This document shows positions 650-39,403 of a DNA stretch of 64,000 bases, in pieces; within the stretch, counting starts at the first letter, position 1; every line of letters begins with the position of its first letter. Below the pieces are notes generated by a model. The model saw nothing but the letters and a program-made list of their open reading frames with translations, did not search any database and was not told the origin of the DNA. The stretch is from NCBI GenBank assembly GCA_963737905.1, contig CAVTUQ010000038.1, positions 1 to 64,000 on the forward strand. Reading direction: 5' to 3'. The translations under genes and the position numbers were made by a program. Origin of the DNA: an uncultured delta proteobacterium. GTDB lineage: Bacteria > Desulfobacterota > Binatia > UBA9968.

Positions 650-817
650 ATGAAGAGTGCAATCCTGCGCCGAAAGTCGATCGAACTCCTCAAGGAACTA
701 ACCCAAATTCTCCAGGAGATTATCGGTTCCGGAGATGAAGAAAGGTTTCGCCGGTTAGAGGAAACGATTCGCAAGCTGGATGACAGTCGTCGAAAACCTG
801 CTCCTACACTTCATTGA
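650..817 (+). CDS. Small hypothetical helical protein (55 aa, MKSAILRRK...PTLH)
   Basis: 3' part of ORF 434..817; GAGGG upstream of ATG 650; no family recognised. Confidence 0.35.
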   Translation: MKSAILRRKSIELLKELTQILQEIIGSGDEERFRRLEETIRKLDDSRRKPAPTLH

Positions 818-871
818 TCGGGTTCCACTTGGACGCGCGAGAGCGCTTTAAATCGTCGCAAGGCTAGGTTC

Positions 872-2173
872 CTAGAACACCTTCGGTTCTTTCACGGGCG
901 TTTCTAGCGCAGTGAGGCCTTTGTCTATTAGGCCTACGCGCCAGCGCAGCTCTTCCTCCGGTGGCAGCTCCGGCTGTCCGACTGGATAGTGAAACTTACT
1001 TCCGCCGAGAATCCTTCCTACTCCGACTTGCGTTGCGACGTTGGAGAGGCAAGTGATTACGACCACCGGAATTCCCTTTTTCTCGATTTCTTTCCCGATC
1101 GTAGCGCCGCTACGTGTGCCGGTTCCTCAGGTGGCGGTTAATATCACCGCGCCAACGCCGGAGCCGGCGAGCTCTTGGGCAATGCCTGCGCCGATTTCTT
1201 CCATCTTGCTCGGCATCGCTCCCGTGCCAGTGGTGACGAAGTAGTGGCCGTGGAGTCTATTGAATCTCTTGGCTTTCTCCAGGACGCGCATGGCGTCCAG
1301 CGGCACGATCCGGTCCGGATCCTTGTCGACTGTAGAAGTATCGTAACCGGTATGCATGGCTTCGAATTCGCCCTGCCTGAGGTCCTCCCGCCCTTCGAGC
1401 GCATACTTGAAATATCTGGAGCCACGGGAGCTCTCCAGACGGTCAGGGTTTCCTTTCGGCACTAAACCGCCCTCGGTAACCAACGCAACAGTGACGTCCT
1501 TCAAACTGCCGGTCAAATTGGGAATAGGATGCTGCTTCGTTTCGACTTGAGGAATCTCGCTCTCATAGGGCTGGCCTTTGAGCTTTGCCAGCAACAGATC
1601 CACGGCGCGGACATAATCCGGCGCGCCCGATCTCACGGTAAATCGCCGTGGAATAGGCAGGCAATATTCAGCACGGAAATTGTCGATGGCATTTTCGTTA
1701 CCATTAAGCAGCCGCTCGATGAGCAGTGAGAAACGTCTTAGGCTTTCTTGCATCGACGCCGCAGAGACGCCGGTTTGAATAACGTAGACGTGCCGGCCGA
1801 TCTCCCTGGTTCCCGGGTTGTCTTCGTGCATTCCAGTGATTGCAGGTATCTGCCAGTTGTCTCGGACCCAGCTGCAGACTTTGGCGCAGGCCAGGCCGTA
1901 TCGGCCGGCATTGAAAGCCGGGCCGGCGAGGAAAACATCGGGTTGAAATTGCTCTAGTGCGGCTCGAATCGCTATCAAAGCTTTGTCTTCTTGTTCGTGA
2001 AAATAGTTGTCCCCGCAGGCGAGCGTTGTGTACTCAACCCCGCGGTCCTTCAACGCGTTTTCGATCACCGCGCCGGCGCCGACGGCGCCGGGTATGAAAA
2101 GAACCTCCTGACCGGCCTTGTCTTCACCGCCGATGCCGGCAAAGAACTGATTCATATAGTGGAGAACCTTCAT
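872..2173 (-). CDS. grdB: Glycine/sarcosine/betaine reductase selenoprotein B-like (GrdB family), 433 aa, Sec at codon 349 (TGA 1127-1129)
   Basis: ORF 1127..2173 (HYMNQFFAGIGGEDKA, AGPAFNAGRYG, LVTEGGLVPKGNPD) continues in frame through TGA as VILTAT-U-GTGTRSGATIGKEIEKKGIPVV into ORF 872..1066; SECIS-like hairpin follows. Confidence 0.9.
1100..1114 (-). promoter_or_regulatory. Bacterial SECIS-like hairpin of grdB copy 1
   Basis: CGUAGC-GGC-GCUACG stem-loop starting 12 nt after UGA; G-first loop 18 nt downstream of UGA. Confidence 0.75.
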
Positions 2174-2184
2174 GTGACTTCTCC

Positions 2185-3471
2185 TTACTGCTCGTAAACT
2201 GCCCGGAACCCGGTGTCGCCCATCTTGCTGTAGGAGCCAAAAAATATGGTGGGGTCAAAGAGGAATGGAAGGCGCGCATCGTGGGTCGCCTTTAGATGGA
2301 GATCGATATCGGCGCCACCGATCACGGTTGCCAGCGGAGGAATATATATTTTCTCCGAAACGTTGCCCCGGCTGATCATGCTATCCGCCTCTTTGGGATG
2401 GTCCACGAGAGGCCTCTCATATCCCTTGGGGCCATTGGACTCATGGAGCACGGCGACGGTCCTGATGCCTTCGTCTTCGCAGGCCTTCACGGTCTGCATG
2501 AAATCGACGGTTCCGTTCCCCGTTCCTTCCATGACCGCGACCGCTCCGTCGGCTCCGAGATTTCGCGCCAGGCGCGCTACCCACAACCCCATCTTCTTTT
2601 TCTGCTCGAAACTGTCATTGTAGCCACGGGAAAGAATGACGCCTAGAAAGTTAGCTGTCTTGCCGTGTCTCTCCAACAGCTCGGCGATGAACGGGTTGGT
2701 GCAGTGGAGAGACGTAGGGATCTTCCGCTCGCTCTTGTAATTCCCGCTGACCACCGCACCGTCGAAGAATTCCGCCGGATGAACAAAAGTCGGCAAAGTC
2801 TTCGAGACTTCTTCGCCGTAATAAAAAGTTCGCGCGCAAACGAGCTGGCTCTGCACCTGATAGATTAGAACGACTTTGGGTAGCCGTTCGTCGACGGGCT
2901 TCAAAGCGACGATCTTTCTTTCAGGCGCGGCCCCCGTTTTCTCCACCTGAGCCAGAAGGCGAGCGCATCGGAGTGTGATGTTTCTGAGCGCCTGGTCGAA
3001 GGCCGCATTGGAGACGGCGGGATCGGGGGTCAGCGAAAGAATCAAATGGAAGCAGTCTGAGCCGTAGGAGTATGAAGCGCCGACACCTGCCATGTCGATC
3101 ATCCCCTCGCGTGGCTTCTCAATTGGCGTCATAGCCTCAGGTTGGGGAAAGCGACCGGCGACGGTCACCAAAAGATTCTTGAGGCGCATTGTTTGCCCCG
3201 TGCCGACGAGTTGCGCCGGACCCTCGAACCCTGGGAAAGTGGAAGCTGAACGATTCAATTTTGCGATCGGGAGCACCGTGTCCAGAACGTGGACGATGCG
3301 TTTGGATTCCCCTGGGCGTGCCAGTTCATAATCGACGCGGATGTCGCGGGTTAGGTCCTTGATTTGTTCCTGAAGATCGGCAACGGAGACGGAAAGGGAC
3401 TTCCCGTCAAGAGCCGTGCGCTCGCTCCATTGGAGGTCTTCGAGAGCGTAGTCGAGAAGTTGCAGTTCCAC
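2185..3471 (-). CDS. Glycine/sarcosine/betaine reductase component B proprotein-like (GrdE/GrdI family)
   Basis: LARPGESKRIVHVLD, GMIDMAGVGA, HPAEFFDGAVVSGN, EGTGNGTVD, DSMISRGN motifs; 11 bp upstream of grdB; GTG 3471 has a GAGAGG RBS and aligns with the paralog's start. Confidence 0.85.
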   Translation of the reverse strand: MELQLLDYALEDLQWSERTALDGKSLSVSVADLQEQIKDLTRDIRVDYELARPGESKRIVHVLDTVLPIAKLNRSASTFPGFEGPAQLVGTGQTMRLKNLLVTVAGRFPQPEAMTPIEKPREGMIDMAGVGASYSYGSDCFHLILSLTPDPAVSNAAFDQALRNITLRCARLLAQVEKTGAAPERKIVALKPVDERLPKVVLIYQVQSQLVCARTFYYGEEVSKTLPTFVHPAEFFDGAVVSGNYKSERKIPTSLHCTNPFIAELLERHGKTANFLGVILSRGYNDSFEQKKKMGLWVARLARNLGADGAVAVMEGTGNGTVDFMQTVKACEDEGIRTVAVLHESNGPKGYERPLVDHPKEADSMISRGNVSEKIYIPPLATVIGGADIDLHLKATHDARLPFLFDPTIFFGSYSKMGDTGFRAVYEQ

Positions 3472-3721
3472 GCGATGGTCCTCTCTATCAGCGGAATAAC
3501 CGTTTCTCATGTACCGCGTTGGTTCTCAATGTGTCAAGTTGAGACGGATTCCGCTAGGCCTGGAGTTTAGCGCAGTCGACAGCTCCGCGGAAGTAGAAAG
3601 CTTTCTCCGCGCAGATTGACAGAATGGTTGACGATCGGATAGTCTCCGGTCCAAAATTGAGGATGCGCCAGTCGGTCTCCTCTAATGGACCTCTAGATTC
3701 TCGAAAGCTGTCGGAGGAAGG

Positions 3722-5321
3722 TTGTCGAGGACAATTTTGGGTGGCCAGTGGCTGAACCTCAAGAGCAAATTCCTATCATTAGATAAACGCCTGACTGCTT
3801 TTCTGCAGAATCAAGTGGGCACCCTGATCAGAGTTGCCTCGCCCGCCGTCATTGCGGTATTGGTACCGCTGTCTGTTAGCGCCGCGCCAGCGGGCCGCGA
3901 GTTCCTCTGGGCGGGCGACCCTGAGGGCGGGGCGCCGTTTGTTGAAGCGGACCCCGCCGAGCCGGACAAAATCGTCGGCTTCGATGTCGAAATCGCCGAT
4001 CTCATCGCGCGCGGCCTCGGGCGCAAGGCCGCCTTCATCAACGTTACGTTTACCTCCATCGATCAATCCATCGAGCGCGGCGACGCCGAGATCGGCCTGA
4101 GTGGCATCGAAGACACGCAGGCGCGGCGCGCCACGATGGCACCCACCGTTCCCTACTACCAGTTTCGCGAAGTGTTGAGTGTGCGCGACGCCGATGCATC
4201 GCGTTTCCTTACCCTTGCCAACCTTCGCGGCCGGCGGGTCGGTACCCTCGGCGGTACGATCGCCTACGAAATCCTGCTCCGCGCCGAACGCGACTTTGGC
4301 ATTCAGGCGATCTCTTACGATGACGATGTGCATCCGTACAGTGATCTCGTGATCGGCCGTCTGGACGCCGTACTGCTCGATAACGTTCTCGCCGAGCGTC
4401 GCCGGCGGGCGCTCCCGGGATTTACGATCCAGCCGCAGAGCGTCGCCGTGGGCCACTATGTCGGCGTGCTGGCGGCCCGGAACGCGGCGCTTCGTGACGC
4501 GATCGACGAAATTCTTCGCGGGGCGATGCAAGACGGTAGCTCTTGAGAGCATTTTTCGCAAATGGGGCGTTTGGAACGAGGATCAGCCGGCGCTCTACGC
4601 GAGGATTCTCGCCCGAGAAACCGTGCCTCCGGTCATCGGCGTCGATGCGCCTTCCGGCGCGACGACACTCTCCGGATGGGAAGCGGCGCGACGCTATCTG
4701 CCGTCGCTGCTGCAGGCGTCGCTGATTACCATTGTGCTGTCGTGCCTGTCCATGGGACTCGCAGTGGTGCTCGGCGTGGCCATCGCCAGCGGCCGCGTGT
4801 ACGGCAGGCGGCTCACGCGCGCGCTCCTCACCGGGTACGTGGAGATCATGCGCGGCACGCCGATCCTGCTCCAGCTCTTCGTTCTCTATTATGGGATCGC
4901 GGCGGCCATTCGCCTGCCGGCTTTCGCGGCGGCGTTGCTGGGATTGGCGCTCAACTACGCGGCCTATGAGAGCGAGATTTATCGAGGGGCGCTGGAAGCG
5001 GTGCCCACCGGCCAGCTCGAGGCGGCGCGGATCCTTGGCCTGAGCGAGCGCCAGGTTCTGACGCTCGTCCGCGGCCCGCAGGCGTTTCGCCTGGCGCTGG
5101 CGCCGATGACCAACGACTTTGTCGCGCTCCTCAAGGACTCATCGCTGGTTTCTGTGCTCACGGTCCTCGAACTGACGAAACAGACGCAGATCTTTGCCAC
5201 CAATATCGGTAGCTGGGTCATCCCCGGTCTGCTCTGTGCCGCGCTCTACCTCGCGATGTCGCTGCCCCTGGCGGCGCTCGCGCGACGTCTCGAACGGCGC
5301 TGGAAGAGGGCGACAGCGTGA
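3722..5321 (+). CDS. Polar amino acid ABC transporter, fused substrate-binding protein + permease (frame break near 4540)
   Basis: GGAPF/GFDVEIA SBP3 domain in 3722..4546 continues as LESIFRKWGVWN...RGTPILLQL...AAYESEIYRG permease in 4458..5321; start uncertain. Confidence 0.8.
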
Positions 5322-5999
5322 GCGGAGTAGTACTTCGTGTGCAGGCCTTGGGCCTTCGCCGTGGCACGCGCGGCGTCCTCGAGGGCGTCACCTTCGATGT
5401 GCCACGGGGCGAGCTGGTAGCATTGATGGGGCCATCCGGGGCCGGCAAAACCACTATTCTAAGAGTGGTCGCAGGGCTGGAGCCGTTTCAGTCGGGGACG
5501 GTCCAGGTCGAGGATTTAGCCATAGGCAGCGGCATGTCGACTCACGCCGCCGACGCTTCGAGCGCTGCGGCGGAAGGTCGGTATGGTGTTTCAGTTTCAT
5601 CATCTGTTCGAGCACCTGCCGGCGATCAAGAACGTGTGGCTTGCGCCGGTGCACGCGTACGGCGTGCCGTTGCGCGAAGCCGAGCGCCGGGCGCGCGAAT
5701 TGCTTGCCGCGCTGGGCGTGGAGCATCGCGCTGCAGCGCTGCCGCGCGAGTTGTCGGGTGGTGAATCGCAGCGGGTCGCCATCGCGCGGGCCCTCGCCGT
5801 CGATCCGCCGCTTCTGCTCATGGACGAGCCGACGGCGTCGCTGGATCAGGCGCGGCGCATGGAGCTCCGGGATCTGCTGCGGGGTCTGCTCCGCGATGGC
5901 CGCACCTTGATTGTGGCGACCCACGACGAAGAGTTCGCGCGCAGTTGCGCCACCCGCGTGCTGCGGGTTATAGAAGGCCGGGTATTTGAAGAAGGTTAG
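5318..5999 (+). CDS. Amino acid ABC transporter ATP-binding protein (frame break near 5540-5560)
   Basis: Walker A GPSGAGKT in 5318..5764; VFQFHHLF, LSGGESQRV, LLMDEPT in 5583..5999. Confidence 0.85.
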
Positions 6000-6023
6000 T
6001 GGCCCGCGAAAAAAAGGGACTGA

Positions 6024-7031
6024 ATGATGATAAAGCAATTCTTATTGCAACACCTTATCATGTCTTTGGTCTTTCTGGCGGCCGTAGGGCTGGCAGTGCA
6101 ACCGGTAGACGGTGCGGAGGCGCAGTTGAAAAGTCCGGTGCCCGGTACGAAAATCAAGCTTGCGGTCCCTTCGCCATCGCTTAGCTATCTGCCGATTCAC
6201 GTCGCGCTAAAGAAAGGCTTTTTCGCAAGGCGAGGCTTTGACATAGAAGTGATTCAGATGGCGGCGGGCTTGACGGCGCCGGCACTACTCAACCGCGCGA
6301 TTGATTACACCACCGTGCCCAGCGGCGTTGCCACGGCGGGCGCGAGAGGAGCTCCGTTGAAAGTCATCTGCTTTGCCTCGGTCAAGCTCCAACATCTGCT
6401 CATCAGCCGCCCCGAGATAATGACAGTGGCAGATCTGGCCGGCAAGAGAATAGGTGCCGGCGGATTTGGAACTCTCCCTGCTTATGAAGTTCGAGTTCTC
6501 ATCGATAGATATCGTTTGGGTCCCGACACAATCATCGTTCCTTTGAACTCCTCCAGCGACAGAATGATCGGCACGCAAAAAGGGACGATCGATGCCGGCA
6601 TCGTCCCCGCGCCGCTGGATTTGAGAGCTGAAGCGCTGGGTTTAAAACGACTGCTGCACATGGGAACGATACTGCCGATTCCACAAGCCGGGCTGGCCAC
6701 AACCGACGAAAAGCTAAAGACGGGACGGGGCGAAGTGATCGAAGTTCTCAAAGCTACGATAGAAGGGCTCGACTATACCTGGACTCAGCGCGAAGCGACC
6801 GTCGATATCATCGCAAGGTGGATGAATCTCAATGCAGCGCAAGCAGCAAAGGCTTACGATTCGGTCAAGGAAACGTTTTCAAAGAACTGTATTCCTTCCG
6901 AGGAGCAGGCCAAGGCGTATATCGCCATGCTTGGCGCCACGGCTGGTCTGAAGGCAGATTTTTCACCGGCATCGATATTCGATTTTTCTGCGGCAACGGA
7001 GGCAAGCAAAGAAATGCCGCTGAAAAGATAA
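6024..7031 (+). CDS. ABC substrate-binding protein, NMT1/THI5/SsuA-like
   Basis: Signal peptide; ALKKGFFARRGFDIE, ADLAGKRIG motifs. Confidence 0.8.
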   Translation: MMIKQFLLQHLIMSLVFLAAVGLAVQPVDGAEAQLKSPVPGTKIKLAVPSPSLSYLPIHVALKKGFFARRGFDIEVIQMAAGLTAPALLNRAIDYTTVPSGVATAGARGAPLKVICFASVKLQHLLISRPEIMTVADLAGKRIGAGGFGTLPAYEVRVLIDRYRLGPDTIIVPLNSSSDRMIGTQKGTIDAGIVPAPLDLRAEALGLKRLLHMGTILPIPQAGLATTDEKLKTGRGEVIEVLKATIEGLDYTWTQREATVDIIARWMNLNAAQAAKAYDSVKETFSKNCIPSEEQAKAYIAMLGATAGLKADFSPASIFDFSAATEASKEMPLKR

Positions 7032-7099
7032 GCTCGCTGTAACCCGGCTCACTTTGCCGGAGCTCCGTATACCTGATAATCGATGAAAGGAACCGAACC

Positions 7100-8170
7100 A
7101 TGCGGCGAATCATCAAAATCATTTTCGCTATCCTCACTCTACCTATGGCTCTCGCAGTGCTCCCCACGAGTGTCCGCGGGGCGACGGTTGCCGAAGTTGC
7201 GGAAAAAGTAAAATCACTCAAGCAAAAGGAAAAACTCGATTACCTCGCCAAAGGCGCTCAGGCGGAAGGCGAGCTGGTTTATTATGGGACGTTACCGATA
7301 GATGAATTTCTTCCTCTGGCGAAGGTATTTAATGCTCGTTATCGAGCTCTGGCTCTGCAGCATTATTTTTCCCCGCGGCAAGGAATCCTCAACCGCGCAT
7401 TGACCGAGGCCCGCGCGGGCCGGCATGCCGTCGATGTGATTCAAGTGGACCTCAGTTACGGCTATCAATTAATGAATGACAACTTGGTTCAACCTTACAT
7501 GATCTCCGGACGGGAACATTTTTACGACGGCACCTATGACCCGAGCGGGTATTGGCATAGCATGTATCACTTGACAACGGCGTTGATTTACAACACGAGC
7601 TCGGTCAAGGCGGAACAAGCGCCGAAAAGCTATCAGGATTTGCTTAGTCCTGCTTGGAAAGGAAAAATGCTATTCGATCCGGAAGCGGGGTATATTTTGG
7701 CTGCCTTGGAGGAAGCTTGGGGTAGAGAAAAGGCCGTCGATTACCTGACCAAGCTATCCAAGCAGGGTATAAGTTATCGGCGCGGCGGAACTTTGACGAC
7801 ACAGGTCGTGACCTCGGGTGAATATCCCATCGGTATCGCCATCAACGGCGAAACTTCGGCGGCCATACGCGACAAGGGAGCACCGTTGGGTTTTAGAGTT
7901 CTATCGCCGAAGATCGTCAAACCCGAAGGTTTGTTTTTGGCGAAAAATGCGCCGCACCCTCACGCCACGTTGCTTTTCGCCGAATGGGTGCTCTCGGACG
8001 AGGCGCAGACTTTTTTGGCGACGACGTTAGGCAAGGGTAGCGCTATGAAAGGGGTGCGCAGTAAGTATAAAGAATTTCAACTGCAGCCCGACTTCGTCGT
8101 GACCCCCAAACTTGGTCCCAAGCTGCAAGCCTACATCCAGGACTTCGCAAAGATCATGAACGTTCCTTAG
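7100..8170 (+). CDS. Extracellular solute-binding protein (Fe3+/thiamine/polyamine-like SBP family)
   Basis: Signal peptide; GAQAEGELVYY, YNTSSV..APKSYQDLLSPAWKGK, APHPHAT motifs; first gene before grdE/grdB copy 2. Confidence 0.8.
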   Translation: MRRIIKIIFAILTLPMALAVLPTSVRGATVAEVAEKVKSLKQKEKLDYLAKGAQAEGELVYYGTLPIDEFLPLAKVFNARYRALALQHYFSPRQGILNRALTEARAGRHAVDVIQVDLSYGYQLMNDNLVQPYMISGREHFYDGTYDPSGYWHSMYHLTTALIYNTSSVKAEQAPKSYQDLLSPAWKGKMLFDPEAGYILAALEEAWGREKAVDYLTKLSKQGISYRRGGTLTTQVVTSGEYPIGIAINGETSAAIRDKGAPLGFRVLSPKIVKPEGLFLAKNAPHPHATLLFAEWVLSDEAQTFLATTLGKGSAMKGVRSKYKEFQLQPDFVVTPKLGPKLQAYIQDFAKIMNVP

Positions 8171-8207
8171 TAGAGAAACTTGGCTGGTCTGAAATGCACC
8201 ACAGAAT

Positions 8208-9516
8208 ATGAAACTTGAAATCGCGGAATTCCCGGTAAAACAGATCCGCTTGGGTCGCCGCTTCAGTTATGAAAACCAGGTTCTTGAGGTTGATGAAACC
8301 GCGTTGATCGATCTGGTCCTTCAGGATCCGCAGGATCAGCGATGCATCCATCGCCGTGGCGATGCCTGGAGAAAAGACGCGCATCACTGGGATTCGAGAC
8401 ATCGTGGAGCCGCGACACAAAGTCTCAGGGAGCGGGCAAGTTTTCCCGGGTATTCTAGGACCCATCGAAGACGTGGGGGACGGACGGACTCACCGGCTGT
8501 CGGACATGACGGTGATTGCCGCGGCAGAATACGAAGGGACGATTCGGGCCGGCACCACGGTCCAAAGGAGCGCCATCCTCGACATGTCTGGCCCCGGAGC
8601 CGAAATCTCCCGATTCAGCTCGCTCCTCCACTTGGTCTTGAACTTTAGAATCGCTTCAGGGCTTGCCGAGTTGGAGGCTCATACCGCGATTCAATTAGCA
8701 GAGTATAAGATTGCGCACCGAGTTGCCCAGACTACCGCGGGACTCTCACCAGAAAAGATCGTTACGTATGACCTCGGCAAACAGGAACCCGATCTGCCAA
8801 ACGTGATGCTGCTGCAAGGTTGCATCACCGACCCTCAGCACGTGCATTCAGGGGTGGGCTATTATGGACTGTCGCTGCGGGATTCCATGGCGACATTTCT
8901 CCATCCCAACGAGCTTTTTGACGGGGCGGTTACCGTCGACACGACCCGTTCGGGTCGCGGCTATTACCCGACCACTTGGGATTGGCAAAACCACCCTTTG
9001 GTTCTAGGACTCTATGGGGCTCACGGACGGAGCTTGAACTTCGGCGGCGTCATCTTGCAGCGCATTCGCTTTGAGACTTCTCACGGCAAAGAAGTGGGCG
9101 CTCAAAATGCTGCCCGTCTCGCTGATGCCATGAAAGCTGACGGTGTGCTCGTTACCTGGATCGGCGGCGGCAACGCGTTCGTCGACGTTATGTTTACCAT
9201 CCGCGCCTGCGAGCGGAGAGGTATAAAGACGACGCTAGTCACCTATGAGAATGGTGGGAAAGAAGGCAAGGATAGCCCGGTGTTGTTCTATGTTTCGGAA
9301 GCGGACGCGATAGTGAGCACGGGGACTCTCGATCGACCTCTGGATTTGCCTGCGATGGACCGAGTGATTGGCCCCTACGAAGAAATCAAGATCTTTCCTT
9401 TTCCCGGCGCGGCACCGGTATCGGCGCGAGGACCTTTATCGCTGGAAGCGAGGGATGTATTGATAGGGGGAGCCGATATTTGGGGGCAGGGGACGTGGCG
9501 GTGTGCGGAATACTAG
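8208..9516 (+). CDS. GrdE/GrdI-like component B proprotein, copy 2 (frame break near 8330-8345)
   Basis: MKLEIAEFPVKQI in 8208 frame, then PGEKTRITGIRDIVEPR, ILDMSGPGA, HPNELFDGAV, GGGNAFVD, DAIVSTG in 8356..9516. Confidence 0.85.
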
Positions 9517-9538
9517 CTCGCATTATTCATGCAAGATC

Positions 9539-9712
9539 GGCCGACGAGCGAGCCTCTCCGGTCGCGGGCAATGGGCCTGTACCTTGAGGATGCCTGCAAA
9601 TTGGAGTGGCAGCCTGTTAAGTGAGGAAGAAACGAGAGCCTATGACCGAGTGCCCAAAAGTCATCGTAGCTTTACACTCCTGTGCCCGCTCGCTCGAGGC
9701 TCATCCTCGGCC
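9539..9712. repeat. Imperfect long inverted repeat (MITE/REP-like or structured RNA) between grdE2 and grdB2
   Basis: Nested pairs GGCCGA/TCGGCC, GAGCCTC/GAGGCTC, GCGGGCA/TGCCCGC enclosing ~110 nt. Confidence 0.5.
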
Positions 9713-9796
9713 AAGAGAATGCCGTTTCGGCTAGCTGGCTGCCCGGTTTAAACGAGTTCGGGAGGTTAAAAAGCTGAAACATAGGAGAAGATCACT

Positions 9797-11270
9797 ATGA
9801 CTACGATCGTTCATGTCGTTAACCAATTCTTTGCCGGCCTCGGCGGAGAGGATAAAGCGGGCATGCCTGTGGGTGTCATCGAAGGCAGCGCCGCGGCAGC
9901 CCGAGGCTTGCAGCTTCAGCTAGGCGACGAAGACGTGAAGATCGCACGCACAATTTATTATGGTGATAACTACTTTCATGAGCACAAAGAAGACGCCATG
10001 AAAGCGATCCTTGATGCGGTTCGCTCAGCAAAGCCGCAAGCGTTAGTCGCGGGGCCGGCCTTTAATTCCGGGCGTTACGGTCTCAGTTGTGTCGAAGTCT
10101 GCAATGCGGTTGCAAATGATCTAGGAATTTCTTGCGTGACGGCAATGCACGAGGAGAATCCGGGCATCGACACTTATCGCGATTGGGCTAACTCCCGGGT
10201 CTACTGCCTGCCGACGGCTGAGACCACCGCGGGCATGACCGATGCGCTGAAGCGCCTGGCCAAATTTGCCATGCGTGTGGCTCGCGATGAAACCGTCGGT
10301 TCCGCGCGGGAAGAAGGCTACATCTCTCGCGGTATTCGACGACTGGAGCCAACGGATCGTTCGGGAGTTGAGCGCGCCATCGAGATGTTGCTCAAGAAAA
10401 TCAAAAACGAGCCTGTCGAAAGCGAGTTGCCTTTGGAGGTATGGGATGATGCGCCGCCGGCGCCGCCGCTAAGTGCAAGTCGAGGAGCGCAGGCTCGCCT
10501 TGGTGACGACCAGTGGCGTCGTTCCCTGGGGTAACCCGGATCATTTCAAAACCTACCGAAATACCCACTGGCAAAAGTACAACATTGCCGAGCTCAAAGA
10601 GCTTGAGCCGGGAAAATGGGAAACGGTTCATGGGGGATACAATATCGCTTACATGAATCAGAACCCTCACTACGGCGTTCCTCTGGACGCGCTGCGCGCC
10701 CTGGAGTCGGAAGGAGCGATCGGTCCGGGCAAACTGTATCCCGCCTATTACGTTATTCCCGGAAACCAGGGATCGCCGACGGTGATGCGTCGCGTTGGCC
10801 AGGAGATTGCGGCGGACTTGAAAAAGGACAACGTCGAAGGCGTGCTTTTCGTCGCCACGTGAGGGACCTGCAGTCGCAGCGGCGCTGTGATGAGCAAAGA
10901 ACTTGAGAAGGCGGGGTTGCCGGTAGCTTTAGTGAGCGCGATGTTTCCAGTGGCGATGCAGGTGCGCGCTAATCGTATCGTCAAAGGGGTGAGCATCCCC
11001 CATCCGTGCGGCGATCCAAGCTTGCCGAAAGAACTGGATGCGCGTCTTCGCCGAGAAATCGTCCGAACAGCGCTCAAAGCACTCGAAGCCGAGGTTACAG
11101 GACCGACTGTGTTTACCCCGGCATACCGTGAGCGGATAAAAAATAGTTTGGCTCGGCGGCGGGGTGGAAACACCAGTCTTTGTGGGTCCTCGTCAGACGC
11201 GATGGACCCTAGCTTCGTCGATCGTGTTTTTGCCCTAGTAAAGTCACGCCGAACATCAAACAATCTCTAG
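9797..11270 (+). CDS. grdB: GrdB-family selenoprotein B, copy 2 (frame break near 10475; Sec TGA at 10860-10862; 3' end uncertain)
   Basis: VNQFFAGLGGEDKAG, AGPAFNSGRYG, LVTTSGVVPWGNPD, VHGGY, then VLFVAT-U-GTCSRSGAVMSKELEKAGLPV...RANRIV..IPHPCGDP in frame with ORF 10887..11270. Confidence 0.88.
10874..10890 (+). promoter_or_regulatory. Bacterial SECIS-like hairpin of grdB copy 2
   Basis: UCGCAGC-GGC-GCUGUGA stem-loop 11 nt after UGA; loop 18 nt downstream; same AGC-GGC-GCU apex as copy 1. Confidence 0.75.
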
Positions 11271-11276
11271 AGTTCC

Positions 11277-12370
11277 ATGCGCATTATCGTGCACGTCGAT
11301 ATGGATGCGTTCTACGCTGCGGTGGAGGAACGTTATAACCCTGACTTGAAGGGCCTTCCGGTGGCGGTGGGTGCCGATCCTAAAGAAGGCAAAGGTAGAG
11401 GCGTGATCACGACAGCTAACTACCTGGCGCGTAAGTATGGCATTCACTCGGCCTTGCCCATTGCGCGCGCGTGGCGACTTGCCGAAGCGGCGCGTCGAAG
11501 AGGCGAACCCGCGACGGTGTTCATTCGTCCCAACTTTACTTTGTATCGAGAAGTGTCAGCCCGTATCATGCAGATTTTCGAACGCTCTGCGGATGCTTTC
11601 GAGGAGGCAAGCATCGACGAAGCTTATCTGGATGTTTCGTCGCGGGAGAATTTCCCGGCCGCTATAGAGCACATGACAAAGCTCAAAGCCGAGATCCGAG
11701 AAAAGGAAGGACTCGGCTGTTCCTTTGGCATCGGGCCGAACAAGCTCATTGCCAAAATCGCTTCCGGCCATCAAAAGCCTGACGGCCTCACGGTGGTGAT
11801 CGCCGGACATGCGTTCAGCAGTTCCTCGATCCGCTTCCGATTCGAGTGATTCCCGGCATCGGCCCGAAGGGCGAAGCCTTTCTCCACCAACGAAATATCC
11901 GGACGATCAGAGATCTGCGCGAGATTCCTGAGGTCATTTTAACTGAGTGGTTCGGTAAGTGGGGACAGCGGCTGTTTGAAAAGGCGCGCGGCATCGATGA
12001 TTCGGTAGTGTCGAACGAGTGGACGCGAAAGTCGTTGGGAGAACAGGAAACTTTCGAGCAGGATACTTGGAACACCTCTGAGGTCACGGAGCGGCTCTAC
12101 AGCATGGCGGAGCGGATTATCGCAAAGCTGCGGGGAAAGGAGTTCTCGGGTTTTCGCACGGTAATCGTAACCGTGCGCTTTTCCGATTTTCAAACCAGTA
12201 ATCGCTCTCGTAGTATCAAGAACGGAATCAGGGTTGATAACAATGGAGAGGCGCTCCGGTTGCTCAAGCAGGAAGCGCTGGCCCTCCTCTCGCCGTTCTT
12301 CGACGCCCGGGAAAATCCGCGAGGAAAGGCGATCCGCCTCATCGGACTGCGCCTGGAGAAACTTTTCTGA
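11277..12370 (+). CDS. dinB: DNA polymerase IV (Y family), frame break near 11805-11825
   Basis: HVDMDAFYAAVE, ANYLARKYGIHSA, SIDEAYLD, NKLIAKIAS..KPDG; continues IPGIGPK...RKSLGEQETF. Confidence 0.9.
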
Positions 12371-12486
12371 TCCGCTGTCTGTTTCACCGGCAGGCTGGTT
12401 TCTCGCGACATTTCTATTTTCTTGACCTCAGTCCGCGATTAGACCTATGTTATGTGCAGCCGGAGAACTACTCGCGAAAGAGAGCG

Positions 12487-13449
12487 ATGTCGATGAATAA
12501 AACGATTTTACTTCTTTTCCTCATTTTTCTTCTCCCCGTATCGGTCCACGCGGCCGATAAGATTCGGATTGGTTATCCGGATCCTTCCGGCTCGTTTCTA
12601 ACACTTCCTTTAGGGGAGAAGGCCGGCTTTTTTCAAAAGGAAGGGTTTCAACCGGAGTTGATCAGAATAAGATCGACTGTTGCTTTGGCAGCATTGGTGA
12701 GCGGAGAAATCGATTATCAATCGGTGGTTGCTCCCGGGATTGCCGCAGCAATTCGGGGAGTACCGGTCAAAGTCGTTGCTTGTTACACGCCTGGTATTAC
12801 TGCCGCGCTCATCGCCCGGTCCGAATATAAATCCGTCCAAGATTTGAAGGGAAAGACCATCGGCCTGAACAGTTTCGGGGGCGGCCTTGAAAGCACTGCG
12901 AGGTTGATGTTCAAGCATTTGGGTCTTGACCCGGACAAGGATCTGAAATTTCTGGCGACGGGCGGGATAGAAACCCGCTTCGCTGCGATGAAGCAAGGAT
13001 TGACGGCCGCCACGTTGGGCTCGGCTCCATCGGACTTTCTCGGTAAGAAGATGGGCTTTGTGGTCCTGGCAAGAGCTCACGAGCTGTTCAGTTACCCGTC
13101 GAGCGGCATCGTCGTGAGTGTCAAACGGATCAAAGAGAGGCCGGACGAAGTCAAGCGAATGATCAAAGCGGGCATAAGAGCCAATCGCTATATTATTCAA
13201 AATCGCGAAAGTACGATTCAGACTATGATCGGATGGATGCGCATCGATAGAGAGATGGCTGCAGCTACCTACGATTCCGTCGTGAAGACTTACAGCGATG
13301 ATTTGAGCCTGCCCGAAGATGGGCTTCGGCTCTTGATTGAAGAGGGCAAGAGGGGTGCCAAGCTCGACCGTGACATCTCTTTCGATCAGGTCGTGGATTA
13401 CTCACTTCTCAGAGAGGCGCAAAGAGAGCTTGGAATCAAGGAAAAATAA
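12487..13449 (+). CDS. ABC substrate-binding protein, NMT1/THI5-like
   Basis: Signal peptide; AADKIRIGY, GFFQKEG, DLKGKTIG, GLDPDKD. Confidence 0.8.
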   Translation: MSMNKTILLLFLIFLLPVSVHAADKIRIGYPDPSGSFLTLPLGEKAGFFQKEGFQPELIRIRSTVALAALVSGEIDYQSVVAPGIAAAIRGVPVKVVACYTPGITAALIARSEYKSVQDLKGKTIGLNSFGGGLESTARLMFKHLGLDPDKDLKFLATGGIETRFAAMKQGLTAATLGSAPSDFLGKKMGFVVLARAHELFSYPSSGIVVSVKRIKERPDEVKRMIKAGIRANRYIIQNRESTIQTMIGWMRIDREMAAATYDSVVKTYSDDLSLPEDGLRLLIEEGKRGAKLDRDISFDQVVDYSLLREAQRELGIKEK

Positions 13450-13476: not shown

Positions 13477-14482
13477 TCAACGCGCTGCCTGAAGCTCCTT
13501 GCGCGCGCGGTCCAAAAAGCTGAAGTCAACGACCTGAGCGGCGCTGATGGGCTGCGTGATGTTTGAGGTCTCGCGGGTGAGGTCGATAAAATACTGCACG
13601 CCCTCGGGGCTGATCACGGCATCCTTGGCAAGGCCGCGTTTGAGATACCTCAACATTTCGTCGGCGAGTTTTGCGTCGCTCACTTTCCACTGCTTCATCA
13701 TGATATCGCGCACTTGATCGCGGGTGGCGTCGTCCATGACAAACGCCAAGCCGCGCAGGGTGGCACGGACCATTCGGTAGACCTCGTCGGGTTGTTGCTG
13801 GATCCGCTGCAGCGACGTGCCGAAGCCGTTTTGTGGGAAGGTCACGATGTCGCCCAAAAAAATCAACTCGTGATAGCCTTTTTGCGTGGCGATGATGTTT
13901 TCCGGCACAGAGAGTAAAGACGCATCGACCAGCCCCGACTCCAAGACGGCCAGACGGCCCGCACCGGAGCCGCCCATCGGCGTGACGGTAACGTCCTTTC
14001 CGGGTTCGAGCCCGAAGTGCCTGAGCGCCCGATAAGCGAGTATAGTCGCCGAGCCGCCGGGCGAGCTGCCGGCGACTTTTTTGCCCCGGAGATCGCGCGG
14101 CTCCTTGATCTCTTTGCGGCTGACGAATGACTGGAGCGGTTTGGCAACGGTAAAGATCAAGATCTTCGCGGGATAGTTTCGCACCGCGGCCAACGCCAAA
14201 CCTGTCAAACCCGCGCTGTAATCGATCTCGCCCTTGAAGAAGGCATTATTGGCGGCCGCAAGGGACATCAAAATGATTTCGAGGTCGATGCCTTCGTCTT
14301 TGTAAAAACCCCGATGATAGGCGGTATAAATCGGCAAGAAGCCGACGCTGGTTGCCGCAATGCCGAGCCTCACTTTCTTCAACGGCGCTTGAGCGGCTCG
14401 CGTCGGAATGCAAGAGAGTCGCGACGCTCGCCAAAATCCAAAAAACAAAAAGGAATCGGCGGGAACGGCCGTGTCTGCACAT
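13477..14482 (-). CDS. ABC substrate-binding protein, NMT1/THI5-like (probable frame break near 14400 in signal region)
   Basis: LKKVRLG, GFYKDEGIDLE, DLRGKKVAG, GLEPGKDV; signal-like MCRHGRSRRFLFVFWILASV in adjacent frame. Confidence 0.75.
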
Positions 14483-20973: not shown

Positions 20974-21954
20974 CTATTGATAGAGTTGTTCCACAAATCC
21001 GGAACGGCGGATCTCTTCGACCAGGCTTGGATCCCAAAATTCCTTTGCAGAAAACTTTGCGGCCCGCGGATCATCGAGGGCGGCCATCTCATAATGGAAA
21101 CTGATGGATTCGGTATTGGGGCGGAGATCTTTTTCCAGGCGCCGGGTGGTCTCATCATATAGATAGCTCATAGCGGCGGTGTCAGAGTTTTGAAAGTATT
21201 TGTACAACACCTTCAGGCTCTCATCTTTGCGCCGCAACATGTAATGGATGCCCTCCATGTATCCCTTGAGGAAGTTGACGACCAGGCTCCGATTCTGCTT
21301 CAGGTAGGCCGTGGTAACGTTAATCCCTCCGCCGGGAGTCGGCACATCGAATTTCGCCAAGACCTTGAGTCCTTCGTTCTTGCCTAACAGGTCCAGAGGC
21401 GGAAATAGCATCGTCCCCTGAATCACGCCGGCCTTTAGGGCCGATAGGCGGCCGCCTTCGCCTCCGCCGATCGATAAGAATTTCACGTCCTCATTAGGAT
21501 TGAGCCCATTGTCACGAAGCAACTTTGCCAAACGGATGTAGCTGGCGTCTCGCCCTCGTGAAATACCGAGCACTTTTCCCTTTAAGTCTTTAACGGATTG
21601 AATCGCTGGCTGTGTTAGCAACGAAGAGCCCAGGGTGTTCATGGTCACGCCCAGCCGGGTCAATGGAATCCCCTGGAGCATCGCGGTGGTAACGCCGGTA
21701 TCCGATCCGATCAGGAACTGGACGCTCTGGCTCACCAAGGCTGGCACCGCCCGTGCTCCGCCGCTGACTAGAACGGGTTCCGCATCGAAGCCGTATTTTT
21801 GCCAGATGCCCTTTTCCGCAGTCACCCAAGATGGCGTCGATCCTGGCGCCACCGCCGGGTAAGCAATGCGGATCTTTTCGGCGGCATGGATTGCGCTTGC
21901 GGAAAACGCCAGATAAAGAACCAGAAGCAAAGGAAAACAATATCGCTTCATCAA
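20974..21954 (-). CDS. ABC substrate-binding protein, NMT1/THI5-like
   Basis: Signal peptide; AAEKIRIAY, KGIWQKYG, DLKGKVLG, GLNPNEDV. Confidence 0.8.
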   Translation of the reverse strand: MMKRYCFPLLLVLYLAFSASAIHAAEKIRIAYPAVAPGSTPSWVTAEKGIWQKYGFDAEPVLVSGGARAVPALVSQSVQFLIGSDTGVTTAMLQGIPLTRLGVTMNTLGSSLLTQPAIQSVKDLKGKVLGISRGRDASYIRLAKLLRDNGLNPNEDVKFLSIGGGEGGRLSALKAGVIQGTMLFPPLDLLGKNEGLKVLAKFDVPTPGGGINVTTAYLKQNRSLVVNFLKGYMEGIHYMLRRKDESLKVLYKYFQNSDTAAMSYLYDETTRRLEKDLRPNTESISFHYEMAALDDPRAAKFSAKEFWDPSLVEEIRRSGFVEQLYQ

Positions 21955-26443: not shown

Positions 26444-27475
26444 TTATTTATTCCAGAGATTATCGAAGAACCCGGATTTTTTCAGCTCTTCGACGTAGCT
26501 GTTGTCGAAGAAAGCGGAGGTGGGAGTGCTCTGGAGCGCCTTGGCATCGACCAGATTCATCTGCGCGAGTTGTTGGGCCATCCATTGCATCGCTCCCGGC
26601 GGAACCGCGGGTTCCCGGGCGAAGTTTTCGACCACGTAAAGATAACTCTGCTGCAGCAACTCTGGATCGTCGATGTAGAGGTACTTGGAGATCAGCTTTT
26701 TCGTCAAACCTTCGTTGGTTGTCATCAGCTTTGTCCCCTCCGCGGTGGCTTTGATCATGCGCACGACAATATCTCGATTAGCGGCGGCATAAGATCGTCT
26801 GGCGACCACGCCATTGGTCAAAAAGCCGATGCCCAATTTTCTTAAATCCTTAGGCGAGACAAGCTCGCGGAACCCCTGCTTTAATAGAGTAAAGGTATGT
26901 GGAGGAGAAACCATGGAGCCATCCACCGAGCCTTTAGAAAGCCCCGCCATTGTTTCCGCAAGCCCGCCCATCTGCAGGATGGTGACATCCTTAATATTGT
27001 TCCGCTCCAAAAGGGCTCGCAGGGCAAGGTCAGTAACCGCTCCGAATCTGGTGATCCCGACTTTTTTTCCTCTTAGGCCGCCCAGCTCTGTGATCTGTGG
27101 GCGAACCATTAGAGACTGGGTGAAATAGGGTACCGTCGCCGCGACCTGGATGATGTCTCCGCCTCTCAGGACGTTCGAAACGACGGACGGTCCACCAAGG
27201 CCCGCGATATTGGCGGATCCGGAGAGCATGGATTGAACCATGACCGTGGACACTCCGACAAAAATCATGTCCACGTTTAGCCCGTTCTTTTCAAAGAGGT
27301 TGGCTTCCTTGGCCACAATCCACGGCATGCTGTTGAGGCCCATGGGACCATAGGGAAATGGAATCTTTGGCGACTGCTGGGTCGACGCAGCAAAAGGAAC
27401 AATAAGAGTGAAGAAAAAAGTCAATAACGGGATGTGGCTGAAACGAACTTTGCGTGTGAAAAACCGCTGGACCAT
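26444..27475 (-). CDS. ABC substrate-binding protein, NMT1/THI5-like
   Basis: VAKEANLFEKNGLNVD, LRGKKVGITRFGAVTD, FFDNSYVEELKKSGF. Confidence 0.8.
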   Translation of the reverse strand: MVQRFFTRKVRFSHIPLLTFFFTLIVPFAASTQQSPKIPFPYGPMGLNSMPWIVAKEANLFEKNGLNVDMIFVGVSTVMVQSMLSGSANIAGLGGPSVVSNVLRGGDIIQVAATVPYFTQSLMVRPQITELGGLRGKKVGITRFGAVTDLALRALLERNNIKDVTILQMGGLAETMAGLSKGSVDGSMVSPPHTFTLLKQGFRELVSPKDLRKLGIGFLTNGVVARRSYAAANRDIVVRMIKATAEGTKLMTTNEGLTKKLISKYLYIDDPELLQQSYLYVVENFAREPAVPPGAMQWMAQQLAQMNLVDAKALQSTPTSAFFDNSYVEELKKSGFFDNLWNK

Positions 27476-27640
27476 GGTTCCCTCCTCGATCTTGCGAAGT
27501 CGTCGACAAGAGTCACCGACTGAAATATCGCTTGGATCGTGCCCGGTCAAGCTCAAACAACATCGGTCTCTTGTCAAGAAACACATCCTGGTCTATGAAC
27601 CGGTAAGGCAACAGAAAGAAATAAGTTTGGAGGATTAGAA

Positions 27641-38356: not shown

Positions 38357-39403
38357 CTAATCAGCGAGCAGTTTTTTCACCCGGTCAGTGACCTCTCGAG
38401 GCTGATCCATAATCTCCCTCAGTAGAGCTTGGAGGTCTTCGCCGGTTGACGGATCCATATCCATTCGGCCTTTATTGGCCTCCGCTATCAGCTCAGGATC
38501 TCTCATAGCCTTTGCGTAGGCCTCGCGCAGAACCCTTACTCGATCCGCTGGAGTTCCGGGAGCAGCAACCATGGGGCGACCAAAGTCTCCGGCGGCCAGG
38601 ATGACACGTGTCAGCCGGCGCCCCACATCGGGAGTTTTGTATTGATCCATCAATTCGAAAAGCGTAGGCGTATCTGCCAATCTCGGGTCCCGTTTTGGAC
38701 CGCCTTGAAGGATATGGCGGTCAAAACCATTCTTGTGCCAAGTATCAAACGGTTCGCGGCCGAAGTGGGGTGGAATGTCCATGCCCCGGCATACGATCTC
38801 GCCGCGTTCCACGGCCACATCGATCTCACTGCCGCCTGGATAACCGGTCACCGTCTGGAGCTTGGCCTTTAAATTTTCTTCCATAAGTTTGGCCAAGAGA
38901 TAGCCGGTGCTGGCGGTTCCCGTTGCCCCACACTTGGGCGGCTCACTCGCCTTGATGATATCGCCGATAGATTTATAGGGCGAGTCCGCTCGAAAATAGA
39001 GCATGACCGGAGCTTTTTCCTGGGTGCCGATCCATTCGAATTTGCGCACATCGAATTGGACTTCTTTCCGTTCTACGAGTTGATCCAGATACAGGCTGTT
39101 GATCGGTACGAGCAACGTCAATCCATCTCCCTTGGAAACGTTGTAGACATAGTTCGCTGCAATCACAGAGCTGGCTCCCGGCATATTCTGCACGATGATC
39201 TCCGGATTACCCGGGATATATTTCGGCATATAGCGGGCAAGCAGGCGCGCCCAGCGGTCATAAAAACCTCCGGGCGTAAAACCCACTACGATACGAATGG
39301 TTTTGCCCTGATAGAAGGCTTGCGCTTGGGCGTTTGCTGCGGGCTCGCCGGCGAGGGAGATGACGAGCACAGCGATCAGGATCGACAAACCTCTTTGCCA
39401 CAT
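38357..39403 (-). CDS. Bug/TctC tripartite tricarboxylate transporter substrate-binding protein
   Basis: FYQGKTIRIVVGFTPGGFYD, QNMPGAS, GYPGGSE..AVERGE, PGTPADRV. Confidence 0.88.
   Translation of the reverse strand: MWQRGLSILIAVLVISLAGEPAANAQAQAFYQGKTIRIVVGFTPGGFYDRWARLLARYMPKYIPGNPEIIVQNMPGASSVIAANYVYNVSKGDGLTLLVPINSLYLDQLVERKEVQFDVRKFEWIGTQEKAPVMLYFRADSPYKSIGDIIKASEPPKCGATGTASTGYLLAKLMEENLKAKLQTVTGYPGGSEIDVAVERGEIVCRGMDIPPHFGREPFDTWHKNGFDRHILQGGPKRDPRLADTPTLFELMDQYKTPDVGRRLTRVILAAGDFGRPMVAAPGTPADRVRVLREAYAKAMRDPELIAEANKGRMDMDPSTGEDLQALLREIMDQPREVTDRVKKLLAD

Follow-up and report, generated by a model that had tools for sequence, protein, structure and literature searches.

The window, meaning the whole 64,000-nucleotide (nt) stretch of DNA analyzed, belongs to a metagenome-assembled genome (MAG) of the Binatia that is 87% complete, and it carries two pairs of genes for a GrdE-like and a GrdB-like subunit of the selenocysteine (Sec)-dependent Grd reductase family. 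Open reading frames (ORFs) were called with TGA read as Sec and then assigned by Pfam. Genomes, loci, and contigs are denoted by G, L, and C, respectively, with G000 being the genome of the window. Pair 1 lies on the reverse strand and consists of grdB1 (872 to 2173; 433 amino acids; PF07355, 363.9 bits) and grdE1 (2185 to 3510), a GrdE/GrdI-like gene of 441 amino acids as called. The true start of grdE1 is probably near residue 14, because many of 80 related matches begin there. Pair 2 lies on the forward strand and consists of grdE2 (8208 to 9516; about 435 amino acids after removal of an extra base at 8332) and grdB2 (9797 to a corrected end at 11131), whose two halves scored 240.6 and 118.2 bits on PF07355 (cutoff, 22 bits). 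Both E subunits belong to PF09338 (cutoff, 22.2 bits), GrdE1 with 317.7 bits and the halves of GrdE2 with 20.3 and 265.9 bits.

The original prediction had described two divergent grdE/grdB pairs around an ATP-binding cassette (ABC) transporter and two solute-binding proteins (SBPs), and all of these genes were recovered as ORFs with Pfam assignments. Its remark that the paralogs are strongly diverged also held: GrdB1 and GrdB2 are 38 to 39% identical, and GrdE1 and GrdE2 are 27% identical across the alignment and 34% in the local match. The end of the span, given as 11270, had to be changed, since grdB2 ends near 11131 once a missing G is restored. The placement in the Binatia agrees with the NCBI label Candidatus Binatia carried by a close GrdB1 relative and by a GrdA locus (85% identity). 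In the literature searched, no paper mentioned "glycine reductase" together with Binatia or Binatota.

Both grdB genes contain an in-frame TGA in the alignment column that holds the Sec of the verified Clostridium fallax GrdB. In grdB1, the single in-frame TGA is at 1127 to 1129, and a hairpin resembling a selenocysteine insertion sequence (SECIS) starts 12 nt past it (1100 to 1114, reverse strand; 6-bp stem, GGC loop). In grdB2, the TGA is at 10860 to 10862, and the SECIS-like hairpin (10873 to 10891, forward strand; 8-bp stem, GGC loop) starts 10 nt past it. A hairpin with a GGN loop 10 to 12 nt past the TGA was present in all five genes folded, i.e., grdB1, grdB2, the C. fallax grdB, and two Binatia relatives, and its stem shows paired changes across these genes. 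The combination expected of this family, an in-frame UGA at the active-site position together with a SECIS-like hairpin, was thus found in both grdB1 and grdB2. The genome also encodes SelA (606.9 bits), SelB (409.8 bits), and SelD (381.4 bits) in a cluster on C29 (71024 to 75669), where selD itself contains an in-frame TGA, read as Sec.

Neither GrdB of the window could be assigned to a characterized enzyme type. GrdB1 scored 371 bits on the subfamily model TIGR01918 (cutoff, 65 bits), 378 on the GrdH model NF040795 (cutoff, 775), 374 on the GrdF model NF040794 (cutoff, 800), 328 on the GrdB model TIGR01917 (cutoff, 602), and 84 on the PrdB model TIGR04483 (cutoff, 300), reaching only the first of these cutoffs. 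The halves of GrdB2 scored 211 and 212 bits on TIGR01918; on the GrdB, GrdF, and GrdH models, each half reached 176 to 208 bits, and on the PrdB model, 73 bits were obtained for the C-terminal half. All five GrdB homologues of the genome passed only TIGR01918, with scores on the GrdB, GrdF, and GrdH models that were close to each other and well under the cutoffs. The E subunits behaved similarly: GrdE1 scored 205 bits on the GrdG model (cutoff, 780) and 117.6 bits on the FarE model NF053623 (cutoff, 675), and GrdE2 scored 101.4 bits on the FarE model, all under the cutoffs. A phmmer search of GrdB1 and GrdE1 against the PDB returned no matches.

Reference loci were obtained by scanning genome contigs with a GrdA alignment, and the best 80 of 298 relatives were kept. 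NCBIfam-verified references include the GrdB proteins of C. fallax (726 bits) and Fonticella (713 bits), against a cutoff of 602 and each accompanied by grdC and grdD, and a GrdH of a Halanaerobiales MAG (817 bits against 775) with a GrdI-type neighbor. Two trees were built with LG+G4 in "quick" mode, one without verified references and one of 120 rows with them. In the latter, the four verified GrdB proteins formed one branch and the two verified GrdH proteins another, each with a support of 99. GrdB1 fell into a three-row clade on a long stem (support, 100), and GrdB2 fell into a nine-row Binatia clade (support, 99) in which its closest relative was the GrdB of G105; both clades lie outside the verified ones. 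Both window proteins are therefore placed outside the verified GrdB and GrdH clades by the tree, and they fall short of GrdB, GrdF, GrdH, and PrdB by score.

A profile of seven Binatia GrdB proteins matched 2,907 representatives (50% clustering) at an E value of ≤0.001, and about 80 of the best 150 matches were near-full length. Eighty of the 150 listed representatives were scanned with NCBIfam; the 70 omitted were rows shorter than 335 amino acids plus three longer partial matches. Four representatives from this search (P0142, P0164, P0185, and P0205) are GrdE-GrdB fusions of 774 to 798 amino acids that end at the Sec codon, and the N-terminal half of P0164 scored 359 bits on the FarE model. 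NCBI annotation already gives relatives of the window proteins the family-level name. As judged from sequence, the pairs are new, uncharacterized variants within the known Grd reductase family, and the view of the original prediction that they are Sec-type component B pairs outside the characterized clades was borne out by both the model scores and the trees.

The active-site regions depart from those of the classical enzymes in both subunits. The motif that begins with Sec is U-G-T-C-T-R-C-G in classical GrdB, U-G-T-G-T-R-S-G in GrdB1, and U-G-T-C-S-R-S-G in GrdB2. The pattern U-x-x-C-x-x-C was thus kept by neither protein, GrdB1 having neither cysteine and GrdB2 only the first. In Clostridium difficile GrdE, the pyruvoyl group is derived from Cys242 (PMC9908766). 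The corresponding residue of C. fallax GrdE is a cysteine preceded by S-G-N. GrdE1 has a tyrosine in this column (S-G-N-Tyr) and GrdE2 has a threonine, so that the pyruvoyl-precursor cysteine is absent from both. No cysteine was found in this column in any of 32 Binatia GrdE-like rows, and a cysteine was found in both the C. fallax and the Fonticella GrdE and in three further GrdE rows. Three GrdI-type proteins have a phenylalanine there, and one of them adjoins the GrdH that exceeds its model cutoff.

These substitutions indicate that both GrdE-like subunits are probably of a non-pyruvoyl type. Binding of the substrate as a Schiff base would then be improbable, because GrdE1 and GrdE2 lack the precursor cysteine. 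Both departures have precedents. GrdI lacks Cys242, and according to the FarB/FarE article (PMC10838667), FarB lacks the CxxC and FarE lacks the processing cysteines. With GrdI, FarB, and FarE as models, substrates that need no Schiff base are favored. Separately, the loci of G056 and G105 that belong to the pair 2 clade each hold two GrdE paralogues (L022, 8557 to 9861 and 10946 to 12250; L023, 8987 to 10363 and 11806 to 13110), one with a cysteine two residues past the Cys242 column and the other without; the window has only the type without this cysteine.

The partner genes of classical reductases are missing from the window, as the original prediction had stated. No GrdA, GrdC, GrdD, or thioredoxin family was detected in Pfam scans of 16 chosen ORFs between 434 and 12370 and of the 56 window ORFs of at least 80 amino acids outside 900 to 12300. 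The genome-wide search for Grd partners and paralogs that the prediction had proposed nevertheless recovered grdA and grdC, along with selA, selB, and selD, five grdB genes, and five grdE genes. The single grdA is on C27 (45666 to 46100), has one TGA and a C-x-x-U motif, and scored 190.6 bits on NF040748 (cutoff, 130). The single grdC lies directly upstream (C27, 44332 to 45549; 492.5 bits against 450) and is split by assembly frameshifts. A TGA inside grdC was considered as a further Sec codon and was rejected, because the match continues in another frame, i.e., the break is a frameshift.

The distribution of the partners follows that of the GrdB proteins. Full-length GrdB was found in 12 of 121 genomes of the class Binatia, and GrdA and GrdC were both found in 11 of these 12 and in none of the other 109; 32 genomes in which only the C-terminal part of the GrdB model was matched, over a short stretch of about 130 residues, were not counted as having GrdB. 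In the second, larger sample (401 genomes of the class), GrdA was found in 75 overall. The pair 1 clade was present in 21 genomes, all from the family of the window genome, and 19 of these 21 have GrdA. The overall count takes in G341 and G393, two genomes that are flagged as unpublished and have no pair 1 clade. B genes in one operon with grdA, grdC, and thioredoxin genes were not seen in the window. In relatives, a B pair is contiguous with grdC-grdA in G105, with the order grdE-grdB-grdE'-grdC-grdA and a GrdB of the pair 2 clade, and in G047, with the order grdC-grdA-grdE-grdB and a GrdB of another clade. The description of the pairs as "orphan" and "stand-alone" was therefore not upheld, given grdC-grdA on C27, the co-occurrence in both samples, and the linkage in G105. 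Part of what the original prediction had named as evidence against itself was seen, namely, grdA and grdC elsewhere in the genome; nesting in a characterized clade was not seen, and grdD was not found.

Three loci of the family have conserved surroundings of grdC-grdA, i.e., L001 (7592 to 15029) of the window's own genome and L033 (2263 to 11288) and L036 (56 to 6073) of G056 and a Binatia MAG. The flanks contain a Macro-domain gene, an NMT1-type SBP gene on the opposite strand, a HAD hydrolase gene, and a gene for an SthA-like flavoprotein disulfide reductase. Two of the three loci (L001 and L033) also have an ornithine-cyclodeaminase-like gene nearby. The G055 locus L024 was searched for a classical GrdE and has none; it holds only a truncated grdB, a thioredoxin gene, grdC, and grdA.

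The GrdD model NF040747 gave a best score of 22.4 bits against a cutoff of 350 in the window genome, and the verified C. fallax GrdD had no tblastn match there. Among the 80 GrdA-centered loci, 60 have a grdD match, all with grdA before grdC. The 20 loci without a grdD match comprise 7 without grdC, 1 cut inside grdC, and 12 with grdC before grdA. Two of these 12 are Binatia-like, nine are from Gaiellales/Thermoleophilia/Actinomycetes (L058, L076, L087, L095, L101, L102, L106, L113, and L114), and one is from Nitrospinota (L103); six of the 12 have 9-kb flanks on both sides. On this sequence evidence, grdC before grdA without grdD is a distinct arrangement. In the actinomycetotal and nitrospinotal loci that are long enough, the order is grdE-grdB-grdC-grdA; L095 and L103 are cut upstream. 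Two Gaiellales loci have an IclR regulator gene upstream, and an amino-acid permease gene is nearby in two.

These observations make it probable that both pairs are substrate-specific, non-pyruvoyl protein B modules that share the single GrdA and GrdC encoded on C27 in a Grd system lacking GrdD. Each pair would provide a GrdE-like subunit and a Sec-containing GrdB-like subunit, as two of five such modules in the genome, and the modules would most likely hand their product to the one shared selenoprotein A (GrdA) and to GrdC. In the proposed mechanism, the selenolate of GrdB would attack the alpha-carbon of a compound of the type X-CH2-COO(-), in which X is a good leaving group, e.g., a quaternary ammonium group as in a betaine. 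The carboxymethyl group would then move to the Sec of GrdA, and GrdC would receive it as an acetyl thioester. Release as acetyl-CoA or acetate is our guess. As the Binatia genomes tested have no GrdD, acetyl phosphate would not be formed in the last step in the classical, GrdD-dependent way.

Several observations weigh against this proposal. The GrdD cutoff was reached in none of 11 GrdA-bearing Binatia genomes (the window genome and 10 others, 3 of these single-contig), the maximum being 27 bits against 350, so that the classical pathway is incomplete. A review states that an interaction of GrdA with UxxCxxC is likely (PMC13188914), and GrdB1 lacks this motif proposed to contact GrdA. G081 (95% complete, 80 contigs) has GrdB without GrdA and GrdC, and the pair 1 clade occurs without GrdA in G329 (84% complete) and G385 (93% complete, 670 contigs), both of which are fragmented. 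The sampled genomes are kin, and the co-occurrence counts are not independent of each other. In the 80 metagenome loci of the pair 1 clade (69 to 91% identity; flanks of up to 6 kb), neither grdA nor grdC was found. The tRNA-Sec was not found in the 87%-complete assembly, where the best match to RF01852 (46.6 bits against a cutoff of 47) is a tRNA-Leu according to ARAGORN. The hairpin stretches are no more stable than shuffled sequences, with z scores of 0.28 (68 nt, grdB1) and 0.33 (69 nt, grdB2). Finally, SBP genes are very numerous in this genome, so that their adjacency to the pairs here is weak evidence if taken alone.

Some of these points would be explained if each GrdE/GrdB pair were a complete, stand-alone reductase that uses a thiol or thioredoxin-like donor and releases its own product without GrdA or GrdC. 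The absence of both partner genes from the flanks of the pair 1 clade loci and from the 64-kb window, the missing CxxC of GrdB1, and the presence of five B modules beside a single GrdA are all consistent with such an enzyme. A candidate donor also exists: a DUF255 protein with a thioredoxin-like domain (500 to 540 amino acids) is encoded divergently beside pairs of another clade or beside grdC (L003, 7114 to 8733, on C9 of G000; L016, 11701 to 13200, in G047), and it is possible that this protein is a reductant for the Grd system. We nevertheless consider stand-alone function unlikely. GrdA and GrdC were found in nearly all genomes with full-length GrdB and in none of the 109 without it, GrdA accompanies the pair 1 clade in 19 of 21 genomes, and the pair 2 clade is contiguous with grdC-grdA in G105. 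Moreover, FarB also lacks CxxC, and yet its authors report upregulation of grdA and multiple protein B complexes that feed one common reductase (PMC10838667).

It is less likely still that the pairs are ordinary glycine, sarcosine, or betaine reductases, i.e., orthologues of GrdBE, GrdFG, or GrdHI in a different phylum that have merely diverged and keep the same substrates. The Joint Genome Institute (JGI) and NCBI label close relatives as "glycine reductase" or "betaine reductase" or by the family name, and the missing Cys242 is shared with GrdI, which keeps glycine betaine among the candidate substrates. However, the GrdB proteins of the window scored near-equally on the GrdB, GrdF, and GrdH models, at 176 to 378 bits against cutoffs of 602 to 800, and neither is inside the branch of the verified GrdB or GrdH proteins. 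For glycine and sarcosine, a carbonyl group is needed, and the cysteine from which it would arise is missing. Verified GrdH keeps UxxCxxC, of which GrdB1 has neither cysteine. The suggestion of the original prediction that the pairs act on other substrates is thus plausible on these grounds, with the placement outside the GrdB and GrdH clades and the Cys242 and CxxC departures added to it.

In the assembly, grdE2, grdB2, the gene for the ABC ATPase, and the neighboring dinB are each split by a frameshift. Logan contigs from four public runs (three studies) were compared with positions 800 to 12500 of the window, and most pieces were 95 to 99% alike; the contigs could stem from related strains, and the sample of origin might be among the runs. 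Base 8332 was absent from all three runs that cover it, bases 10475 and 11812 were each absent from both covering runs, and base 4539 was absent from all four, whereas an extra G follows 11116 in three runs. Removal of bases 8332 and 10475 restores the reading frames of grdE2 and grdB2, and the C terminus of the corrected GrdE2 agrees with its relatives. With the G added after 11116, grdB2 ends near 11131, as do its relatives, instead of at 11270. Base 11812 is the site where dinB is split. Four of these five one-base differences are at gene breaks; none of the differences listed concerns the ATPase break. The breaks in pair 2 are accordingly assembly indels, because the public contigs lack or contain exactly those bases, and the predicted pair is intact in nature.

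Single-base indels are frequent in this MAG, and any "pseudogene" call in it needs a comparison with public contigs. On other contigs of the same MAG, grdC and the Macro-domain gene (L001, 7592 to 8168 and 8226 to 9724) and the grdB on C28 (L004, 9887 to 11213) are also split. The 280-nt spacer between grdE2 and grdB2 (9517 to 9796), to which no strand was assigned, contains a repeat of about 190 nt. In other parts of the genome, blastn found 29 matches to it, of which about 20 are 150 to 210 nt long at 70 to 84% identity. Contigs of other strains show loose ends and skips at 9516 to 9795. From these matches, the spacer element resembles dispersed intergenic repeats of the miniature inverted-repeat transposable element (MITE) or repetitive extragenic palindromic (REP) kind. 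That pair 1 alone is functional and pair 2 consists of decaying pseudogenes, as the two frameshifts, the aberrant tail of grdB2, and the repeat between grdE2 and grdB2 might suggest, is very improbable, given that the public runs correct all three sites in the pair, that indel errors occur across the assembly, also in dinB, the ATPase gene, grdC, the Macro-domain gene, and the C28 grdB, and that pair 2 keeps its Sec codon, hairpin, and conserved residues. Both pairs, as reconstructed, are real and probably functional.

The transport genes are located between the pairs on the forward strand. An SBP_bac_3 gene (3722 to 4546), which belongs to an ABC importer of the polar amino acid type, is followed by a permease gene (4458 to 5321) and an ATPase gene (5318 to 5999) with two ABC_tran halves and a frameshift near 5530 to 5580 in the assembly. 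With base 4539 dropped, the SBP and the permease read as one protein of 532 amino acids; this fusion presumably resembles GlnPQ-type importers. Next are a gene for an NMT1/SsuA-like SBP (6024 to 7031; PF09084, 44.4 bits), on the same strand as pair 2, and one for an SBP_bac_8-type SBP (7100 to 8170; PF13416, 66.3 bits). The grdE2 gene starts at 8208, exactly 37 nt past the stop of the latter, as the original prediction had noted. Segment 4001 to 6000 has a G+C content of 65%, compared with 52 to 57% in its flanks. An Rfam scan of the window gave no matches at gathering scores, and therefore no glycine or other riboswitch was found in it.

Family scores do not name a ligand for these SBPs. The NMT1-type protein scored 47 bits on the SsuA subfamily model TIGR01728 (cutoff, 163.5) and has no PDB relative. 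The SBP_bac_8 protein matched PhnS2 weakly (57.7 bits against 392.75), and its PDB matches, to Fe3+-binding and P5PA proteins, are weak as well, with at most 47 bits and no ligand named. The SBP_bac_3 protein has no paralogue in the genome, and paralogues of the SBP_bac_8 protein (28 to 36% identity) adjoin other grd loci. Within its own genome and in the remaining Binatia grd loci compared, no relative of the NMT1 SBP exceeds 28% identity; the copy in L124, which has the corresponding position, is 88% identical.

SBP genes are conserved beside the pairs in relatives. L124 repeats the whole arrangement at 85 to 89% identity, comprising pair 1, the divergently oriented ABC importer, both SBPs (NMT1 and SBP_bac_8), and a pair 2-type grdE. 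Copies of the SBP_bac_8 protein that are 89 to 90% identical are arranged likewise in L124 and L127. In pair 1 clade loci, SBP_bac_3 orthologues of >70% identity are located divergently upstream of grdE in 8 of 52 that could be evaluated, and an SBP-family gene is within 2.5 kb in 30 of 58. In a distant subclade (69 to 72% identity), a same-strand NMT1 SBP gene lies <300 nt past grdB in 8 of 38 evaluable loci, often with SBP_bac_8 next to it. The pair 2 clade locus of G056 has two NMT1 SBP genes interleaved with grdB and two grdE genes.

Adjacency within G000 has to be read against the abundance of such genes. At least 151 NMT1 matches were found in the genome by family search (346 candidates, 150 scored), and about 200 were found after merging of tblastn matches. 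An NMT1 SBP gene is within 3.5 kb of five of six grd loci, compared with a random expectation of 0.22, with the two window pairs sharing the same SBPs. Synteny across relatives is stronger sequence evidence for a transport link than is adjacency in one genome. Because the NMT1 SBP has no closer relative in the sampled Binatia loci, the link rests on recurrence at the family level and on L124 and L127. The adjacent ABC importer and SBPs probably supply the substrates of the pairs, and the SBP link proposed in the original prediction holds in synteny. Further SBP genes of the window, four of the NMT1 type and one TctC-type receptor, are at 12454 to 13449, 13477 to 14448, 20974 to 21954, 26444 to 27586, and 38357 to 39403. 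The NMT1- and TctC-type SBPs of the window are mostly without adjacent permeases, as part of a massive expansion of orphan SBPs in the genome.

The protein B family is a large radiation, with 540 clusters at 50% identity for an E value of ≤1e-30 in the profile search. To our knowledge, substrates are known in this family only for the glycine, sarcosine, betaine, proline, and fluoroacetate enzymes. Soil Binatia have up to five modules per genome, all without the pyruvoyl precursor, and the genomes tested are without GrdD. Provided that the modules do partner with GrdA and GrdC, these abundant uncultured soil bacteria would use selenium for the reductive cleavage of bonds in small acids, and the final step of the pathway would have to differ from the textbook route through acetyl phosphate. 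The operon-like linkage of SBPs offers a practical handle on the substrates through the ligands of the SBPs.

A broader and more doubtful proposal is that Binatia, Gaiellales/Thermoleophilia, and some Nitrospinota run a distinct form of Grd without GrdD, in which one GrdA-GrdC core would serve up to five non-pyruvoyl modules, each fed by SBPs of its own and each cleaving a different X-CH2-COO(-) compound, with acetyl-CoA or acetate, and not acetyl phosphate, released by GrdC. We put this forward only tentatively. Candidate substrates would be betaines and, possibly, sulfoacetate or phosphonoacetate, the last two because SsuA-like and PhnS-like SBPs, with family scores far under the cutoffs, adjoin the pairs. 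If true, soil bacteria would have in this system a hub for selenium-dependent catabolism or assimilation and not a fermentative, energy-conserving reductase.

Compared with known systems, the pairs share features with each but match none. The glycine reductase subunits GrdE and GrdB of Clostridium sticklandii and C. difficile belong to the same Pfam families and have Sec and the hairpin in the same position as in the window. The classical enzyme has Cys242 and the motif U-G-T-C-T-R-C-G and its genes form one operon with those for GrdA, GrdC, GrdD, thioredoxin, and thioredoxin reductase, as in the C. fallax DSM 2631 locus L099 (grdX-trxB-trxA-grdE-grdA-grdB-grdC-grdD). In contrast, the window pairs have no Cys242, lack one or both cysteines of the motif, and are unlinked in a genome in which GrdD was not found.

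The betaine reductase module of GrdH and GrdI, known from Eubacterium (Peptoclostridium) acidaminophilum, is closer in some respects. It is a two-gene module with Sec in the same position as in the window pairs, and it works through a shared GrdA, which we count as a further likeness; the verified example of this type is that of the Halanaerobiales MAG (GrdH, L111, 10858 to 12186; GrdI type, L111, 9522 to 10847). In place of Cys242, GrdI has a phenylalanine and GrdE1 a tyrosine, i.e., an aromatic residue in both, and neither is a pyruvoyl proprotein. However, the GrdB proteins of the window scored 176 to 378 bits on the GrdH model against 775 and are outside the GrdH clade. UxxCxxC is kept by GrdH, but both of its cysteines are missing from GrdB1 and the second is missing from GrdB2. 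In addition, the Binatia genomes tested lack grdD, and the window modules are unlinked from grdA.

The fluoroacetate reductase subunits FarB and FarE of Cloacibacillus porcorum MFA1 (PMC10838667) resemble the window pairs in combining the lack of a CxxC after Sec with the lack of the processing cysteines, and FarB is one of many protein B paralogues that feed a common reductase. On the FarE model (cutoff, 675), GrdE1 and GrdE2 reached only 118 and 101 bits, respectively, the phylum and habitat differ, and the tree did not include a verified FarB.

The loci of the Gaiellales/Thermoleophilia and of a Nitrospinota MAG, which are uncharacterized, resemble the Binatia in having grdC upstream of grdA and no grdD. 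They differ in having a single B pair contiguous with grdC-grdA, whereas the Binatia family has up to five unlinked pairs. The GrdB motif in the two of these loci that were read, L058 and L102, is U-G-T-G-T-R-C-G.

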